Position numbers and translations under genes: made by a program. From Octopus vulgaris (lineage: Eukaryota), in the NCBI GenBank assembly GCA_951406725.2, contig OX597821.1, forward strand, positions 8,928,001 to 8,992,000: DNA of 64,000 nucleotides, in the 5' to 3' direction. The notes under the pieces are model-generated. The model saw only the letters and a list, made by a program, of their open reading frames with translations, did no database searches and was not told the DNA's origin. This document shows positions 33,354-50,419 of the stretch, one piece after another. Numbering within the stretch: the stretch's first letter is position 1; every line of letters begins with the position of its first letter.

Positions 33354-35149
33354 TTTGTGTTCTTTCCCTATACATAACTCGTCTGTAACTTTTCTACCTT
33401 CTACACTCACACACACACACAAACACACACACACACACACACGCACACACACACACACACAGGCACACACACATAAACACGCACACACACGCACAGAGTC
33501 TCTCTCTCTCTATCACACACACACATACACACATACACAAGGAGGAAATCTCAGAGACTTGCGAGGTGTAAATGTGGAGGTCTTCAAAGAGCATCGGGAG
33601 ATATTACCAGATGTGTCCAAATCGCGGCAGAAATCACGAAGAAGAGCAGTTCCATCCAACTAACTACTTTACCAAAAACCAGTAAATAAAAGAAACCTAA
33701 ACATACAGAAAGGCACTACTTCCCGCCTATAATATATATATATATATACAAGTACATTAAAAGGTTTCCAATAAAGAAGCAAGTGCTAGATACACAAAGA
33801 GGGGATAAATTCATGAAATGGAAAGACAATTAAAAACGTTTACCATCTCAGCCAATCTTGTACTGCAGTTTCGTCTTTTTTTTTTTAGCAAATGGATAGA
33901 ATTCATCTGCCAAGGCCAGATATATATATATAAATGATAGAAAATGGAAATATATTATTATCAATACAAAGTTTAAAATTTATTAACATAATTCTATATA
34001 ATATTATGTTCTTATAATAATATAATATAGTATATAATAAATATCAAATACAAATTACATACAATTGTTTCGATTTTTACCCATAAAAAAGTTATAAAAA
34101 TCCATTGTTTGTAGGTATGAATCTCTTCAGTGTAATTTTTGATTGATAAGGATTCATAGATCCAAGAAAAGAGTGAATTTAAATATTTTCATGTTTTCAA
34201 TCGTGAGCGCTAATAATTGAAAACAAAATAAATATAAAAAATGTAAAATAATATAACGTTCATAGAATACATTTGTATATTGTTAAGTATTCTAATATAA
34301 GTATATCAGCGCATTATTTTTTTTATACCAGGAACAATATTTTTAGAAATATTTTTCTTTTAAATATTAATACAAAAACCATGGCGGAAAATGAAATATC
34401 GCGTTCATTCTTTTATATTATTAAAAATACATGTTATTACAGTAACAGTACACTTTTTTATCTATGGGTAAATAGCAAAATAATATATTTAAGTTACTAT
34501 ATCATCTCTAGTCAAGTAGCAAATAATATTATAAATTACATTGCATTAATTATTTAAAATAATCATAACTAAAATTCAAAGGTTAATAATTAAAAATTAT
34601 ATAGTTTATATAAGAAAGAAACTTCGTAAAAAATATCATAAGATTATTGCAGTAGAAGTTTAAAAGAAACTCTGAATTAACCAGTTATCCGGAAGCAATT
34701 TAATGAAAAGGACTTCGTAAATGTCCTTTTGTTAATTATTCATTTTCATATCAAAAAATGATGCTAAAATTAAAATTAAAATTAAATGTTTTTTAGAGGA
34801 AAAAATCTTATATTACGTTTATATACATTTATACTTACGGAAAAATAGAAAGGATATAATTTCACAAAGGTGATTTACTAAGTATGTTTTTAATATGGTG
34901 TATAATAATTATTATTCATGCAAGAATAATTTTTATCTAAACTAATTTTTATATTATCAAATGAGATTTTTTTTTATTTTCAGGGGAAATAATTCAGTTT
35001 AAATTAATATGTTTATAATTTAGTACATTCGTAACAATATTAGAAATATATAAAACTTACAATAGGCTCTACTTTAAAATTTAATATAAATTTATATAAT
35101 TACATCTAACATCATTCAAGATACAACACTTTGAAGAGAAACTAACATG

Positions 35150-37745
35150 GACGATACAACTACCATACAACCACCCAATAACTAAACAGTTTGACATGTC
35201 TGAATCGAATGATGAATGACAGATACATAGATGATGATCAACTAACAAGAAACGTAAGAGTGTACGGAGGAGTACAACTAGATACAGATGAACTCGCTGT
35301 CCTAGAACTCCCTCCGAAGTTTGCCATATATAATATGGTTAGAAAGATATCAATACTGTCAGACATTGAGAAATGCTTCACCAAACTAAGATGGAGAACA
35401 CACTTTAACCACAACCAAAAAATCCTGATATTCATGGCACATCTGACAAAAATCATTCATACGTGACATACCGTTTGACATGAAAAGGGTCTGCCCTACC
35501 AACTTATCCTTCAGCAAAGGAGTATGCATACCACCCTATGCTGACATTGCTTTAAAAGCAAAGTTTACCCTAACTAAGTCAAAACTACTGTCTGCTTTCT
35601 CTGACCACACCCAAAGGCATAAACTGAAACGTACAAAAAATAAGACCTATGATCTTGACACCAAAATTAAGAAAGGTCTTAACAAATTAAAAGGATAGAG
35701 AAATTGTATGTTTCCCGACTGACAAATCAGGCGGAATGTATGTTGATAACGTATCAAGCTATATTTCGAACATGCAACCACACACCAGAGACAAGATAGA
35801 GACAACTACACTCGAATGCTCAAATGGGAATGTTGTGTATCATTCTCCAGTCCGAGAAACGTACAGCGAACAATTCCATAACCAACAACAATGAAATCCC
35901 ACCCCTATATGGCCTTCGAAAAATCATAAGAGCTACACAAATCATGCACTTGGTCCACCTACCCGACCCGTTTGTGGTGCCAACAATGCTAACAATCACA
36001 AAATATATTTTCTTTCACAATTCCGTCGACCCTTAATAGAGTTATCTATAGATGTATGTGATGGAACTGAAGATCCCGTTTGCAGGATCCGTATATGCAA
36101 CACCACATGTGACCTCAGTGACCACATCGTAGGTAGCATGGATGTGGTATCACTATATCCTTCTATTGATGTTGACTTTGCTATTGAAAAATATATAAGA
36201 GTTAACTTGTAAGAGCAATATATTATTTAAAAATGTGGATATATTTGCATTACGTCTCTTACTGACCCTAACTTGTACCGACGAATATCTGTCACGCAAT
36301 AACCTGGTATATGCTTGTCCCACCCGTAACAAACGAGGTAGACCGTCTACTATTATTCCAGCATACAAAATGACCCACAGTGAACGCTGGCACGGATGGA
36401 CAAAACCAGATCACCCACTTTCGGTACACACGACATCAGAACCACTGTAGCACACGCTATCGGAGCCAGCCTTAGAGCTACTCTTAAAAACCATATTTTT
36501 AAGTTTAATAATAAACTATATAAATGAAATGAAATGAACTATATAGATGAAAGGTGGTGGGGATCGCCGGTGATGCTGCCAACCTCTTCATGGTATGGTG
36601 GGGCAGGCATTTTAAGCAGTGACTAGTGACCCGTAACATCCACTCAACTATGTATTCTCGATACGTTGAAGACATTACCCTTGTGAAAAGTAATAGTAAT
36701 ACAGATATCGACACTCTACTAAATGAAGAACAGATGATGACAACTATACAACACATAGCTGACTCTATCCATAGCAGTATAAAGGTTACTGTAGACTACC
36801 CCCATAAACACCCAAGAAATAGATTACCTGTCGTAGATACTGAGTTGTGGATAGAATATACTATGATTAACGGAACTGTTAAACCCTCTTTACTCCACTC
36901 ACACTATTTTAAACCTATGGCTAATCCACTGATAATCCGTAGTTACTCAGCGATGTCAAGTACTACCAACATTAGCATCTTCGTGGCAGACTTAGGTTAA
37001 TGAGGAACGTATCCCCACTATGCCAGCCACGAGAACGGCAACAACACATCTAGCACTACATATTCCGAATGCAACGTTCCGGTTGCACACAGTACGATAG
37101 AATCAGAGTGTACAAAGGAGCGAAAACAAGATTCGAACGCATTCTAAGAGATGATGAAAAGAGCATATGCCCCCTATACCGCAACAAGTTCTGGAATAGG
37201 TTGGAGAGGGACACCAACAATATAAATAAAACCAATATTTGGTATGATAACAGGAAGTTTTACAGTGTAATGTTTGTTGACGCTACACCTAGGAACGAAT
37301 TAAGTAGTGCATTTAAGAAAATCTTGCACACAACCGGCCTTAAGATCAAAGTTGTAGATAACACAGGTAGGACTATCAAATCTGCATTAAGTACATCACA
37401 CCCATTTGATAGAATCACGTGTCAGAATAATTGTACAGTATGTTCTATAAACCCACATATGAACTGCAGAAAAGAAAGGGACTTGCACTATTATCCCGGA
37501 GTCATATATTGGAGAGACCTCTAGGAGCATCGATGACAAGTTCAAAGACAACACATGGACAACTAAATTTAAAAAAACAAACAAACAAACTCCATCTTCT
37601 ATCAGCATGCTGTAGACTGTCACAATGGCTCCTTAGGAGACTTAGTTTAGAATATTATGTACACATCCAACTGATGCAATGCTAAGACAAACCCCTGAAC
37701 CTGTCTGTATACAGGAATTCAAACCCATCCTCAACCGTAAACCCT
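35150..37745 (+). mobile_element. Decayed Penelope-like element (RT + GIY-YIG endonuclease)
   Basis: VLELPPKFA; FPTDKSG; PPLYGLRK; VGSMDVVSLYPSID; YSRYVEDI (YVDD); LP.VDTELWI; HYFKPMA; C-terminal YIGETSRSIDDKFK. Many stops and frameshifts. Confidence 0.9.
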
Positions 37746-38352
37746 AATGGTGTAACAGCCAGATTCCACTCGGCAGTACCCATCTATAATCACCCCCTTT
37801 TTCTCATTTACATGTAGAAATCCATACGTACGTGTTGAGATGCAAGATATTGAAATATACATAATTATATATGATCGTATGAATGTACAAAGATTAATAT
37901 ATATGTACGTATGTATAGATGCATGTGTATTTTTGCGTACTTGTGTATGTATGTGTGTACGTGTGCATGTATGTGCTGTGTAAGTAATGTGTGTATGAGT
38001 GTGTAGATGCATGCACGAGTATGGGTGTAGATATATGTATCTATTATATATATATATATACATGCATGTAATCACATATATATGTATATGTCTATGTATA
38101 ATAAAATAAAAATAAAAATAAATTGAAAAAATAAAATAATTGAATTTTAACCGTTGTCTGCGAAAATTGCGACATATATATATGGATAAGCGTATATATG
38201 TGTATACTTTAAGAGTACACGTATATATGCGAGTGGGTATATATGTTTATATTATTCTGTGTGCTTGTACATGTGTATAGGCATGTTTATATTTGCATGT
38301 ATGTATCTAAGACGTATCCATTCCTGTTAGACGGTGGTGAGAGGAACACATG

Positions 38353-40128: not shown

Positions 40129-42430
40129 TCAATTCAATTTAATTATATTTTCTAAACACTTATCTTGAAGAGTGTTTACAAGATAAAATACGTCCTTGTT
40201 AAGAAGTTTTGTTTTTATTATTGATTTGAAAATTTGATATATTTCATCGACACTCAGGTTACATTTATTATCACCAATTTTATAAGATCTAGTATGACTA
40301 AGTATTTGCCATTTAAGGTTATATAATTTATTATACCTTAGCTTCCATATGAATTTACTTGAACTGGTGCTGCACGACTTATTTCTGCTTCTAAAAGTAT
40401 ATACATGGTTTAAAATACGCCGTGTAATAAAACTTTTGGTTGACCTAATATAAAAATTACTATTTCCTTTAGATTCTACCCTACATCTGTATATAAGGTT
40501 AGTTTGGATGCAAAAATCACTGAAATAACATTTATCCTTAATCACAAGTTCTAGCAGCACGTTTGCGATCAAGTCCATTGTTAGTGTTAGTAATTAAAGT
40601 ATCATTATTTCTATTACCATAAAAATGATCTAATTTATTGTTATTAATCGAAGAGATAGTTCTAAATAGTTTTTTTAGATACTGAGAAACCAATTGTAAC
40701 CGTTTTATTATTAACTATTTCATTATACTTATTTTCTTCTTAAAATGTTTTAGATATAGATCTGTAAAAAAGATTTAACCAAATTAGCTTTATTTTTCTA
40801 GCGAAAGGAATAATAAACCAAATACTGTTGTCTTTTTTCAAAGTTATCATCATCCGATTTATCAAAATTAACATATGGGATATATTTCCTACTCTTATAT
40901 TTAAACTTCTTCTTCTTCTTCTTTTTCTTCTTCTTCTTCTTTAAAAGATTCATATTATTGGTATTAATTTTAGAATATAGATCTACACTACATTTACTCC
41001 AGTCTTAATTTGTATATTATTAGGTCCAATAGTAGTCAATTTATTAATAATAGTATCATCCTTATTTTTATGAGGCTCACTAAGTTTAAGTTTATTACTC
41101 ACACCACTAACATTATATTTACCCAATCCGTTGTGTCTCGATTTAGTGTTATTGAAATTTTTACTGTCTTTATCCTTTTTACATTGCACAATCTTATGTA
41201 TATATCGCACTTTCTTAAGGGCTACATTATAGTATTCAGCATTACAATTGAAAATTTCCTTCTTAGAAGATAAAAATGAAATTCGTCTCGAAATATTTTC
41301 AACCAAAGACGTGTAACTGCTTTAGGATGATTACTATTAAAATTAGTATACTTGAAGTTAGTATTAGATTTATGATATGGTCTATATTGGCTTGTAAGAG
41401 GATTCATATTATCATCTAAATAATTAGTAGAATCAGGTTCGTTTTCAATAGTAACAGATAGACCAAATCCATGAAGTCTTTTCATATACAAATCCAATTT
41501 CCTATTTGACAGGGTGTTAATTAAAAACAATGCATCGTCCCTATGTAATCCACCTTTAAGTTCCAGAAATTCACTATGTAAATAAAACAGAATGTATATC
41601 CCTACAAGATCAGTAATGTGGCTAAATCAGTTGATCCCATAATAATATCAAAACTATCATAAAAATTTTTTATGACCCTGTATTAATAATCAAATATAAT
41701 TACTGATTTTCTTGCTTCTAAAATTATTTTAATTTCTTTTAAAGTAAGGTTAGATCTATTTTAGCAAGCAAAAGAACCTGATTAAGAACTATAGTATTTA
41801 TAGATGAATAATAATTATCAATACCTATTTGTATTTACTTTTATTTTTATAATCTACTCTAACAAACTAATTAATAGCTTCCTGCATATTTAGCCATAGT
41901 TCAAGTTTCAATTTTCTCATAAGTTTCGGTAAATATTTATCTAAAATACTTTTACTTAATTTACCTTGGTCAGATCGGCCTGGGCAAATCAATATAACTT
42001 GAAATTTAGAATAGAAGTTATCTTATGATCTTTTAAAGTTATTCTTGGCCTCATAGGCACAAATGGATCTGTCCTGTCATCAAGTTCATAATTCTCCATA
42101 GTCTTCTTAGCTTTTAAGTTAATAGACAGTAAAATCTTTCTACTTACTACCTTATACTTACTAGTTATTTCATTTTTAATTAGGTCATTGTATTTTAATA
42201 TATCGATATTAAACAATTTTCCGGTTTTATGTGATTGAACAATAATTCCATTTTTTGTTTAAGGTCAGATACTAAAGTTCTCATATTCCTTAAATGTTTA
42301 TGCCCCCTAAGGTGATAGTTAATAAATTTAACAATTTTAATTAGAGACCATAAGTCATTCTCAAATGCCGCCAAATGGGGGTTCGGTGGTGGTACAAGAA
42401 TGTCTTTTAATGGAACGTCAATTGGTAACT
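40129..42430 (-). mobile_element. Decayed Penelope-like element of a second family, convergent with the first
   Basis: Minus strand: PRITLKDHK; ITDLVGIYILF; GGLHRDDALF; YRPYHKSN..FKY.N..SNHP; GIY-YIG region NLIYRCRV...FYIRST...KWQIL...KCNL (ORF 40129-40578). Confidence 0.88.
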
Positions 42431-44222: not shown

Positions 44223-44261
<39 letters not shown>

Positions 44262-44275
44262 TATTATATAGAAGG

Positions 44276-44326
44276 AGCTTCTACAGGACTGGAACTGTTT
44301 CATTCAAGAGAAATCTTCAGGAAGCT
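44276..44326 (-). ncRNA. Type I hammerhead ribozyme motif (minimal, PLE-type)
   Basis: Minus strand: AGCUUC-CUGAAGA-uUUCucuuGAAu-GAAA-CAGuuccagucCUG-UA-GAAGCU; 6-bp stem I, weak stem II, GUA cleavage triplet. Confidence 0.65.
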
Positions 44327-44895
44327 AGTTAACAAGAATTGTATTGACATTTATACATTTAGGCAGGTTTAAAGGGGTGTTGGTGGGGGACTTTTTGGGG
44401 GTAGGCATAGCGCAAAATATCATACTTGGGGGAGTGGTCAAGGAGTCAGTGTTAAATTAGATAGAAGAATAAATAAAAAAATAAAAAAATATATATATAA
44501 AAAAAGGGAATAGAGTTTTAGGTAAATAAGGGGATTCTCACTTATACAAACATATATACATATACAAACACACATACATACACACACACATATATACATA
44601 TACACATATACACATGTTTGTATATGTATATATGTTTGTATGTGTGTGTATATATGTATACATATGTGCATAGGTATAAGTGAGAATCCCCTTATTTACC
44701 TAAAACTCTATTCCCTTTTTTTTATATATATATTTTTTTATTTTTTTATTTATTCTTCTATCTAATTTAACACTGACTCCTTGACCACTACCCCAAGTAT
44801 GATATTTTGCGCTATGCCTACCCCCAAAAAGTCCCCCACCAACACCCCTTTAAACCTGCCTAAATGTATAAATGCCAATACAATTCTTGTTAACT

Positions 44896-44946
44896 AGCTT
44901 CCTGAAGATTTCTCTTGAATGAAACAGTTCTAGTCCTGTAGAAGCT
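44896..44946 (+). ncRNA. Type I hammerhead ribozyme motif (minimal, PLE-type)
   Basis: AGCTTC (44896-901), CTGAAGA (44902-08), TTTCTCTTGAAT, GAAA (44921-24), CAG-TTCTAGTC-CTG, TA, GAAGCT (44941-46). Predicted cut after 44940. Stem II starts with a U-U mismatch. Confidence 0.7.
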
Positions 44947-45104
44947 CCTTCTATATAATAATAAATTAATTTTACTCTGCTATGTACTGAGTACCTTATT
45001 TACTATGGTTAACCCCGAATCAACCCGGGACCTACATATATATATATATATACACACATATACATACATACATACATACATACATACATACATACATACA
45101 TACA

Positions 45105-45136
<32 letters not shown>

Positions 45137-45310
45137 CACGTATATAGGGAGAATTTACAAAGAAACAAAACACGAAGACAGGTGGTATAGACAACAAACA
45201 GATGTCTTAGTTTAATGCTCGCGAAGTGAAAAATTCTTCAACGTTTCGAGCCTACGCTCTTCCAATGAAAGCAACAAGGAGAGAAAATAATGTGTAGTGG
45301 GTAGCAATGT

Positions 45311-45380
<70 letters not shown>

Positions 45381-45659
45381 TTATATATATTAAAATATTA
45401 TAATAATCCAGGTTTCTCGGAGCACTAGGCCACTTGGTGTTGAATAGATATACTATTAAATTAGTATCTAATTCTCTCACCCTTATTAATTAATTATAAT
45501 TATGCTGCATTTATTTCTAAATGCAGTATTTGTTTTCCGTGAAAGTTTGGCGCGCTGTTAGTTGGGGCATTTGAATTATAACGTCGGATGTAATCAATTG
45601 AACCACACGCGTATTTATCGTTATGGTAAAATCTGGCGTGTGATTGAGTGGATTTCATC

Positions 45660-45755
45660 CAGATAGTTTTGGCTGACGAGCTACAAGTGGATTTTTTTGT
45701 AAGTAAAATTACATTTAATTCATTAATAGCGAAACAATTGTCCCAAAATAATCTG
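45660..45755 (+). ncRNA. Type I hammerhead ribozyme, copy 1
   Basis: Stem I TTTTGG (45667-72)/CCAAAA (45743-48), extended by CAGAT/ATCTG; core CTGACGA (45673-79); long stem II GCTA...TAGC with inner TGTAA/TTACA hairpin; GAAA (45731-34); palindromic ACAATTGT stem III; GUC triplet with cut after 45742. Confidence 0.85.
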
Positions 45756-46194
45756 TATTTTTGTTATTTTTTATTTGCCCTGTTCGTGTGAGCTAACAAT
45801 CGTACTGACTTTCATGGGAAACATGTATTTTTGTGGTTGAAACCTTTTGGATTAACTGGTGCTAGAGTGAGCCATGTAGTGACCACTCTCTTATATTTAT
45901 TTTGTAAAAATATTATAATATATTATAAAATATTATAATAATCCAGGTTTCTCGGAGCACTAGGCCACTTGGTGTTGAATAGATATACTATTAAATTAGT
46001 ATCTAATTCTCTCACCCTTATTAATTAATTATAATTATGCTGCATTTATTTCTAAATGCAGTATTTGTTTTCCGTGAAAGTTTGGCGCGCTGTTAGTTGG
46101 GGCATTTGAATTATAACGTCGGATGTAATCAATTGAACCACACGCGTATTTATCGTTATGGTAAAATCTGGCGTGTGATTGAGTGGATTTCATC

Positions 46195-46290
46195 CAGATA
46201 GTTTTGGCTGACGAGCTACAAGTGGATTTTTTTGTAAGTAAAATTACATTTAATTCATTAATAGCGAAACAATTGTCCCAAAATAATCTG
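46195..46290 (+). ncRNA. Type I hammerhead ribozyme, copy 2
   Basis: Identical to copy 1: CTGACGA at 46208-14, GAAA at 46266-69, GUC with cut after 46277. Confidence 0.85.
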
Positions 46291-46459
46291 TATATTTGTT
46301 ATTTTTTATTTGCCCTGTCCGTGTGAGCTAACAATCGTACTGACTTTCATGGGAAACATGTATTTTTGTGGTTGAAACCTTTTGGATTAACTGGTGCTAG
46401 AGTGAGCCATATAGTGACCACTCTCTTATATTTATTTTATATTTATACATATATATATA

Positions 46460-46875
46460 GGCGCAGGAGTGGCTGTGTGGTAAGTAGCTTGCTTACCAAC
46501 CACATGGTTTCCGGTTCAGTCCCACTGCGTAGCACCTTGGGCAAGTGTCTTCTACTATAGCCTCGGGCCGACCAAAGCCTTGTGAGTGGATTTGGTAGAC
46601 GGAAACTGAAAGAAGTCTGTCGTATATATAAATGTATATGTATGTGTGTGTGTGCGTGTATGTTTGTGTGTCTGTCCCCCTAGCATTGCTTGACAACCGA
46701 TGCTGGTGTGTTTACGTCCCCGTCACTTAGCGGTTCGGCAAAAGAGACCGATAGAATAAGTACTGGGCTTACAAAGAATAAGTCCCGGGGTCGAGTTGCT
46801 CGACCAAAGGTGGTGCTCCAGCATGGCCGCAGTCAACTGACTGAAACAAGTAAAAGATTAAAGAGTAAAAGAGTA
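46460..46875 (+). mobile_element. tRNA-derived SINE (same family as 14878-15268)
   Basis: Same head, body and AAGAGT tail. Confidence 0.9.
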
Positions 46876-47021: not shown

Positions 47022-50086
<3,065 letters not shown>

Positions 50087-50419
50087 TTTTAGTGAACTGA
50101 ATAGATATCAAAGTAACTAGCTAATCGATTGTTTGTTTAATGTGATGGTTAAACAATCAATCGGATGTAGCGTGACGAGAAGTCACTAAGATACTAAAGG
50201 AGCTGCGAACAGCCATGAAATAACTTTACCTAACAAATATCCGATTGATTTTTAACCAGCACATTAAACGAACAATCGGTTATTTAGTTGTTAGGTATTT
50301 AACCAATTTTTTAACAGTAAAGAAGTGGAATTGAATCTGCGCGTATGTCATTATTGTTGACTTAATGACTCACCCAAGTCACAACAATATATATGTATGT
50401 ATATGTGTGTTTTTGTATA

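Follow-up and report, generated by a model that had tools for sequence, protein, structure and literature searches.

The window, a stretch of 64,000 nucleotides of Octopus vulgaris DNA, contains a tandem insertion whose genomic matches place it in a repeat family that is young, dispersed, and non-coding and has many hundreds of insertions. The family is likely a new one of a known kind, the non-LTR retrozymes, and may already bear a name in Repbase or Dfam. The whole reading, in which a protein of a Penelope-like element (PLE) would act in trans and copy an RNA circle of this likely retrozyme, is given a probability of about 0.7. Movement through an RNA intermediate with PLE machinery is held with high confidence, and the circular form of the template is considered probable. 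As in other non-LTR retrozymes, the units measure a few hundred bp, stand head to tail and carry one type I hammerhead each; they have no coding capacity and 32% GC, and the dispersed copies at 60 loci are unattached to a reverse transcriptase (RT) ORF.

A period scan found a 535-bp period over 45391-46438, with 524 matches over 45380-45919 against 184 for the runner-up period. The second lap is partial and halts at 46438 (unit position 504), and the insertion therefore amounts to 1.96 units, which contain two hammerheads and a single cut-to-cut monomer (Table 1). Of the 513 positions that both laps cover, 3 differ (45759, 45784, and 45876). No ATG ORF of at least 40 aa was found on the plus strand of the unit, and one 52-aa frame lies on the minus strand. 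The preliminary description of this DNA had reported two almost identical non-coding units, two small hairpins (45505-45526 and 45604-45642), and a complete type I hammerhead in each unit. These observations were reproduced: the hairpins are present at those coordinates, and the CUGACGA core, the GAAA, the palindrome ACAAUUGU, the GUC, and the predicted cuts after 45742 and 46277 are all as described. Stem I of both hammerheads has 6+5 bp. A hammerhead motif scan of the whole window on both strands gave three matches, which are the two unit motifs and one at 34130 on the minus strand.

Table 1. Features of the tandem insertion and its target in the window (unit position 1 corresponds to 45400)
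Feature	Positions	Strand	Description
(TA)n target microsatellite, left part	45310..45390	.	repeat scan
Whole insertion	45391..46438	+	single arm; 5' truncation near unit position 527; the '504' site is its 3' end
First 535-bp lap, non-coding	45391..45925	+	period scan, ORF scan
Type I hammerhead 1	45660..45755	+	stem I 45660-45672 with 45743-45755
Hammerhead 1 core	45673-45679	+	CUGACGA
Hammerhead 1 stem II	45680-45730	+	4 bp closing a 51-nt hairpin
Hammerhead 1 GAAA	45731-45734	+	palindrome ACAAUUGU at 45734-45741; GUC; predicted cut after 45742
Predicted cut-to-cut monomer, 535 nt, 32% GC	45743..46277	+	predicted cuts, fold
130-nt 'tail' between the two fixed ends	45904..46033	+	position equivalent to the PLE tail
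Second lap, 513 bp	45926..46438	+	3 differences from the first lap
'99' site, other fixed 3' end of the family	46020..46033	+	internal in the window copy, also at 45498
Type I hammerhead 2	46195..46290	+	CUGACGA at 46208; predicted cut after 46277
'504' end, inferred reverse-transcription start of the window insertion	46425..46438	+	same site passed internally at 45903
TA-rich target remainder, right part	46439..46459	.	sequence inspection

The genome that was searched comprises 2.8 Gb in 227 contigs. The unit has at least 191 matches in it (40 of 1,172 candidates scored), located on many contigs and, where full-length, 95-100% identical. An exact word across the cut site matched 2,121 times and a word in the tail region 2,709 times, and the reversed controls gave 0 matches. 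Exact junctions of a fixed end with TA numbered 839 for the '99' end and 433 for the '504' end genome-wide, and these counts are lower bounds because the '504' end scatters over about 7 nt. The arrays consist of 1 to 15 units, and the loci have different flanking sequences. The head-to-tail joint of the unit also occurs in contigs of three public sequencing runs. Because of the thousands of exact word matches and the joint in three runs, the dimer is neither a chance product nor the assembly duplication of a single unit that the preliminary description had considered. Several subfamilies can be told apart by core position 7. In a sister subfamily that is 72-79% identical, layout and ends were alike in all seven loci fetched. 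A single sister-subfamily unit (L209:4871-5345, minus strand) has a deletion of about 18 nt that starts no more than 5 nt from the predicted cut site.

The anatomy of the insertions was studied at 60 loci of 10 kb each, namely 33 consecutive loci on contig 1 retrieved through the cut-site word and 27 loci picked for long or two-arm arrays. On the hammerhead-sense strand, every arm ends near unit position 99 or 504 and is followed by (TA)n, and no arm with any other 3' end was present in the 60 loci. Two divergent arms, one with a '99' end and one with a '504' end, make up 37 of the 60 loci; 22 are single arms (11 per end type), and one consists of three pieces. The 33 consecutive loci alone comprise 15 two-arm, 17 single, and one three-piece locus. 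The two fixed 3' ends lie 130 nt apart and the 5' ends are scattered; the '504' end has no homology to TA repeats. The window copy is a lone '504' arm. Two fixed 3' ends with a tail between them, 5' truncation, and tandem and inverted arms are the features of a PLE-mobilized non-autonomous element, and the two-end pattern, as read from these loci, appears to be the two-site priming ('tail') signature of PLEs.

The same anatomy bears on spread at the DNA level, through extrachromosomal DNA circles or a Helitron-like route, and on an assembly artefact, both of which are most improbable. Tandem arrays can arise by DNA-level spread, and in run X5 the unit forms a single 565-nt contig that closes on itself, which fits either RNA or DNA since tandem DNA gives the same contig. 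However, strand-polar fixed 3' ends with random 5' ends, an anatomy identical to that of ORF-bearing PLEs, and RNA-type covariation that includes G-U pairs (see below) argue against a DNA route, and the many loci with different flanks argue against an artefact. Among the public runs, 20 of 24 contain the stretch and none is recorded as RNA; the three with the unit and its joint are only guessed to be RNA. In X19, the depth of the unit relative to the neighboring high-copy repeat resembles the values in the DNA-like runs X1 and X3, in X18 it is far lower, and contig depth cannot rank expression. This very high-copy repeat (46460-46870) adjoins the 3' side of the insertion and has a depth about 50-100 times that of the unit in two DNA-like runs; we take it to be SINE-like.

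The insertion ends match those of PLEs in the same genome, and therefore the family likely borrows a PLE enzyme. ORF-linked PLE families show the two-end pattern in (TA)n, with cut-to-TA distances of 34-40 versus 137-173 nt and of 60-62 versus 202-218 nt, and several such families have ends separated by about 70 to 155 nt. The same pattern is seen in a Neptune-like family that has a 1,025-aa ORF and a GIY-YIG match. The hammerheads of these PLEs are built like those of the unit: stem II measures 46-63 nt, and the 8-nt word of stem III is palindromic, in four different sequences, in 46 of 54 motifs, among which the sister subfamily and the older family of the window are also counted. Many PLE ORFs are intact and near-identical (899 aa; 980-1,091 aa; 717 aa; 1,025 aa), which argues that active partners exist. 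Taken together, copy number, dispersal, conserved fold, and PLE-type ends support the reading of the preliminary description, that of a non-LTR retrozyme copied by a PLE RT.

A partner of Hydra type is somewhat favored over one of Neptune type. The 1,091-aa ORF contains RWR, DKT, YRDD, CxCx5C, CxxC, and CxH, as in the Hydra definition (PMC8557442), and its placement in the Hydra clade is suggested by motif only. Neither Pfam nor pairwise BLAST nor a PDB sequence search confirmed an RT in the Hydra-like ORFs, and only the Neptune-like ORF matched GIY-YIG. In the PLE protein searches, the best 104-150 of 3,323-24,409 candidates were scored, and the resulting sample of PLE families is incomplete. 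No parent PLE was found in this sample: the tails of nine other families or subfamilies gave z below 2 against the unit tail, and only the sister subfamily scored. The Neptune-like family, the 899-aa family and its relatives, and the 717-aa, 980-1,091-aa, and 842-aa families were considered as parents, and the unit has no homologue in the 3' UTR of any of them. When the unit was compared by BLASTN with 34 Hydra-like and 22 Neptune-like loci, the matches were either short and AT-rich or independent copies of the unit, and a hairpin apparently common to the unit and PLE tails was not significant. Similarity to an autonomous partner at the 3' end was thus absent among the PLE families sampled.

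The preliminary description had offered an orphan tandem pLTR of a PLE as its alternative, which would hold if all copies were attached to PLE ORFs. In such a case, leftovers of autonomous PLE ends, or a passive satellite, would have been amplified locally by unequal crossing-over. A 2026 preprint proposes such array growth and finds retrozymes related to pLTRs (10.64898/2026.07.22.740005), the hammerhead design matches the PLE ends of this genome, and the ORF screen covered 60 loci. In that screen, which used the PLE proteins of this genome, the unit was joined to a PLE ORF in 0 of 60 loci, no RT-endonuclease ORF fragment was continuous with the 5' end of an arm, and no arm ran on into non-unit PLE sequence. 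PLE ORF fragments occurred in 6 of the 60 loci at a distance of 85-3,721 nt, were 27-55% identical to the queries, and were separate from the arms; only the fragment at L055 is both upstream and codirectional, at a distance of 1,050 nt and beyond a (TA)n run. In addition, the unit closes on itself and each locus has its own primed ends. The pLTR alternative is contradicted by these independent fixed-end insertions and is very unlikely.

Two other PLE families were noted during the search. One, at L293-L322, is very young, with open frames of up to 717 aa and at least 150 matches at 99-100% identity; its ends are about 70 nt apart, and it has a hammerhead-like motif with the core CCGAAGA or CCGAUGA. 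The other is the 899-aa PLE, of which at least three full-length 3.62-kb copies stand in a head-to-tail tandem at L273-L274 (G000 C1:119.51-119.53 Mb). This tandem is the autonomous counterpart of the retrozyme arrays.

The window itself contains several other elements. An older hammerhead family occupies 33990-35100 on the minus strand, with its core at 34130, a predicted cut after 34060, a 52-nt stem II, and the same palindrome as the 535-bp unit. Its copies are 73-88% identical, AT-rich, and longer than 1.2 kb, and they too have two ends in (TA)n, separated by about 125 nt. A decayed Neptune-like PLE follows at 35100-37850 on the plus strand; its young relatives have the intact 1,025-aa ORF, a tail of about 55 nt, and in the 3' UTR, by eye, seemingly a hammerhead with C3-G8 swapped to G3-C8. 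Decayed ORF pieces at 40129-41626 on the minus strand resemble Hydra-like PLEs by eye and had no convincing Pfam match. A 253-bp inverted repeat, 98% complementary, lies in TA-rich DNA at 44256-44966 and by eye resembles a two-arm insertion of a different small element that bears a hammerhead-like motif. A 3-kb (TTA)n array of 1,023 copies occupies 47024-50091.

The conservation of the RNA was assessed from its fold and its core. The 535-nt monomer has a folding z of -8.6 against shuffles (minus strand, -6.2), and its predicted fold is a branched rod with both ends brought together. Across 25 aligned units, both partners are changed in 17 of the 143 predicted pairs, whereas shuffles gave 6.3 +/- 1.8 such pairs; none of 500 shuffles reached 17, and slid controls gave 1-6. 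The covarying pairs include stem I and stem II pairs and also G-U pairs. The structure was derived from the alignment on which it was scored, and four of the 25 rows, from the sister subfamily, give most of the changes; for these reasons, the covariation is support for a conserved RNA fold, short of proof. Position 7 of the hammerhead core varies freely (C22/A11/G5). Among young copies, 0 of 18 core sites against 45 of 476 other sites are changed, which is nonsignificant alone (p = 0.17). An Rfam covariance-model search missed the unit hammerheads, with 0 matches at the gathering score and no hammerhead among 59 matches at E up to 10; the long stem II is the likely reason for this miss.

The stem III design suggests in which form the RNA would be cut. 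Closing the 2-bp stem III costs a computed 1 kcal/mol in the monomer, and two palindromes pair at -6.4 kcal/mol. For other hammerheads, the palindromic stem III design is described as cutting in multimers and not in monomer circles (PMC4209133). A lone hammerhead of this family should be weak because its stem III has only 2 bp; multimers would cut through the 8-nt palindrome, and a circle with one hammerhead would survive.

The template was examined in a sample of loci not chosen by the cut site, which consisted of the first 30 matches of each end junction (60 arms). The 5' end lies inside the sequence examined in 52 of these arms, and the 5' ends are scattered. The 60 arms pass the predicted cut site 69 times. 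A scripted count found 0 stops within 6 nt of it, where 1.3 are expected at the mean rate of about 1.5 per kb; by inspection, the arm at L171 ends 4 nt from the cut site, giving 0-1 stops in all. No indels occur at the cut site in 153 and in 69 units. This makes a cleaved linear monomer an unlikely template, whether or not jumping is assumed.

An uncleaved linear multimer fits the cut-site read-through equally well. Under this alternative, PLE mobilization would be the same, the hammerhead would be incidental, and long clonal arrays would regrow by tandem duplication at the DNA level. It is in keeping with the Poseidon PLE of Anolis, for which cleavage is dispensable in vitro and unprocessed RNA is the main substrate, according to the experiments described in PMC11167929. 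Furthermore, a core variant was copied, as representative units of L055 and L057 have the change U4C. Some loci also point to multi-unit or mixed templates. Of 113 within-array alleles, 19 recur in more than one unit; the array at L064 (G000 C28:10.73 Mb) has a 4-unit period with recombinants of two haplotypes, and some alleles of these haplotypes are fixed elsewhere in the family; and L065 (C3:179.75 Mb) and L228 (C1:158.29 Mb) have alleles common to both arms. Such mosaic arrays cannot come from one monomer circle; possible causes are multimeric circles, template switching, and gene conversion, any one of which could account for them.

The clonality of the arrays points in the other direction. 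Units of the same arm differ by 0.33%, those in opposite arms of one locus by 0.50%, and those from separate loci by 3.1% (219 units, 54 loci), and the 15-unit arm at L232 has no substitution over unit positions 3-499. Distinct haplotypes each own long near-clonal arrays. Linear copying at the above stop rate only shortens arrays, and a linear template therefore needs a single-unit bottleneck and regrowth. In 17 of the 37 two-arm loci both arms exceed one lap, which would require both arms to be long at the start or to expand separately. In addition, core and palindrome are unchanged between the subfamilies that are 72-79% identical. An uncleaved linear multimer is thus considered unlikely. 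Rolling synthesis on one monomer circle would fit best, with long clonal arrays per haplotype as its direct outcome, and the sequences argue that the arrays were made at insertion rather than by later satellite-type expansion.

The preferred reading, a PLE protein copying an RNA circle, can be written as a series of predicted steps. Multimeric transcripts would cut themselves through paired hammerheads, and the 535-nt monomer would be ligated into a circle. A PLE protein in trans would nick both target strands at (TA)n, prime at the two sites ('99' and '504'), and copy round the circle; in the window copy, only the '504' arm would have been fixed. What is read from the sequence is the dispersal, the (TA)n target, the strand-polar fixed 3' ends, the divergent arms, the random 5' ends, the scar-free passage of the cut site, the near-identical arms, and the lack of an ORF. 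A more specific form, double rolling-circle reverse transcription, is tentative and falls a little short of even odds. Here, a PLE dimer would prime both nicked strands on the 535-nt circle, make up to 15 laps per arm, at times switch circles to give mosaics, and recognize the structure of the circle, not 3'-end homology. If this form is true, the proposed life cycle of retrozymes becomes a defined reaction that can be reconstituted, and it would also explain why PLEs themselves have a tandem and inverted anatomy.

As a repeat family in itself, the octopus repeat is ordinary, and the retrozyme class and its PLE link are already in print (PMC7229834; 10.64898/2026.07.22.740005). What is new is a clean genomic footprint that ties a retrozyme to PLE-type two-site priming and favors a circular template. 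A literature search listed no study of a retrozyme in cephalopods and none of two-site priming in retrozyme arrays, with most subscription journals and repeat databases outside its scope. The copying enzyme of animal retrozymes and the circle as template have been proposed (PMC7229834), and no demonstration was found in the literature covered. The family offers a ready test system: it is young, its priming sites are mapped within a few bases, its target is known, and several intact candidate PLE proteins are present in the genome.

In animal non-LTR retrozymes (Cervera and de la Pena 2020, PMC7229834), circles were shown in a mussel and a PLE RT acting on the circle was proposed, according to the main text; the mussel retrozyme there accounts for about 5,000 hammerheads. 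Both systems are non-coding tandem repeats below 45% GC in which each unit has a single type I hammerhead, the copies run to thousands, and the monomer is highly paired. The unit is 535 nt here, compared with 170-400 nt in that study and 51-972 bp in 10.64898/2026.07.22.740005, as the sizes are given there. Stem II has 51 nt here, and target duplication is unreadable in (TA)n, in contrast to what that main text describes. Circles were demonstrated for those retrozymes and are predicted for the octopus family. Two-arm inverted insertions and two fixed priming ends occur here and are not described in the text covered of PMC7229834, whose main text has 0 occurrences of 'inverted'. Li, Clavereau, and Pollet (2026, bioRxiv 10.64898/2026.07.22.740005) derive retrozymes from PLEs, as non-autonomous elements, on the basis of their co-occurrence and of pLTR homology across 35 genomes that include no mollusc as the preprint presents them; array growth is ascribed there to local amplification, and cleavage is reported for one of nine predicted dimers. 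The present analysis likewise concludes that PLEs mobilize such repeats. In contrast to the lines of evidence set out in that preprint, the evidence here is insertion anatomy, with no pLTR homologue found and arrays apparently born multimeric.

Among the PLEs, Poseidon of Anolis (Frangieh et al. 2024) is described as having a protein that, when purified, nicks AT-rich DNA on both strands and initiates at two neighboring internal positions of the RNA; the stretch between these positions is the PLE tail (PMC11167929). The octopus family shares the two internal start sites, the AT-rich target, and independence of homology, as these are reported for Poseidon. Poseidon, as described there, is autonomous, with a 30-40-nt tail and a linear template, in contrast to the 130-nt tail here. 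Hydra-clade PLEs, in the account of Craig et al. (2021, PMC8557442), share (TA)n insertion, canonical hammerheads, and tandem and inverted insertions. The MRC1-type Chlamys elements of that account are likewise non-autonomous with multicopy head-to-tail insertions; they resemble their partners at the 3' end and Chlamys elements are mostly without hammerheads, whereas the octopus unit carries a hammerhead in every lap, without an ORF and without detected 3'-end similarity to an autonomous element.
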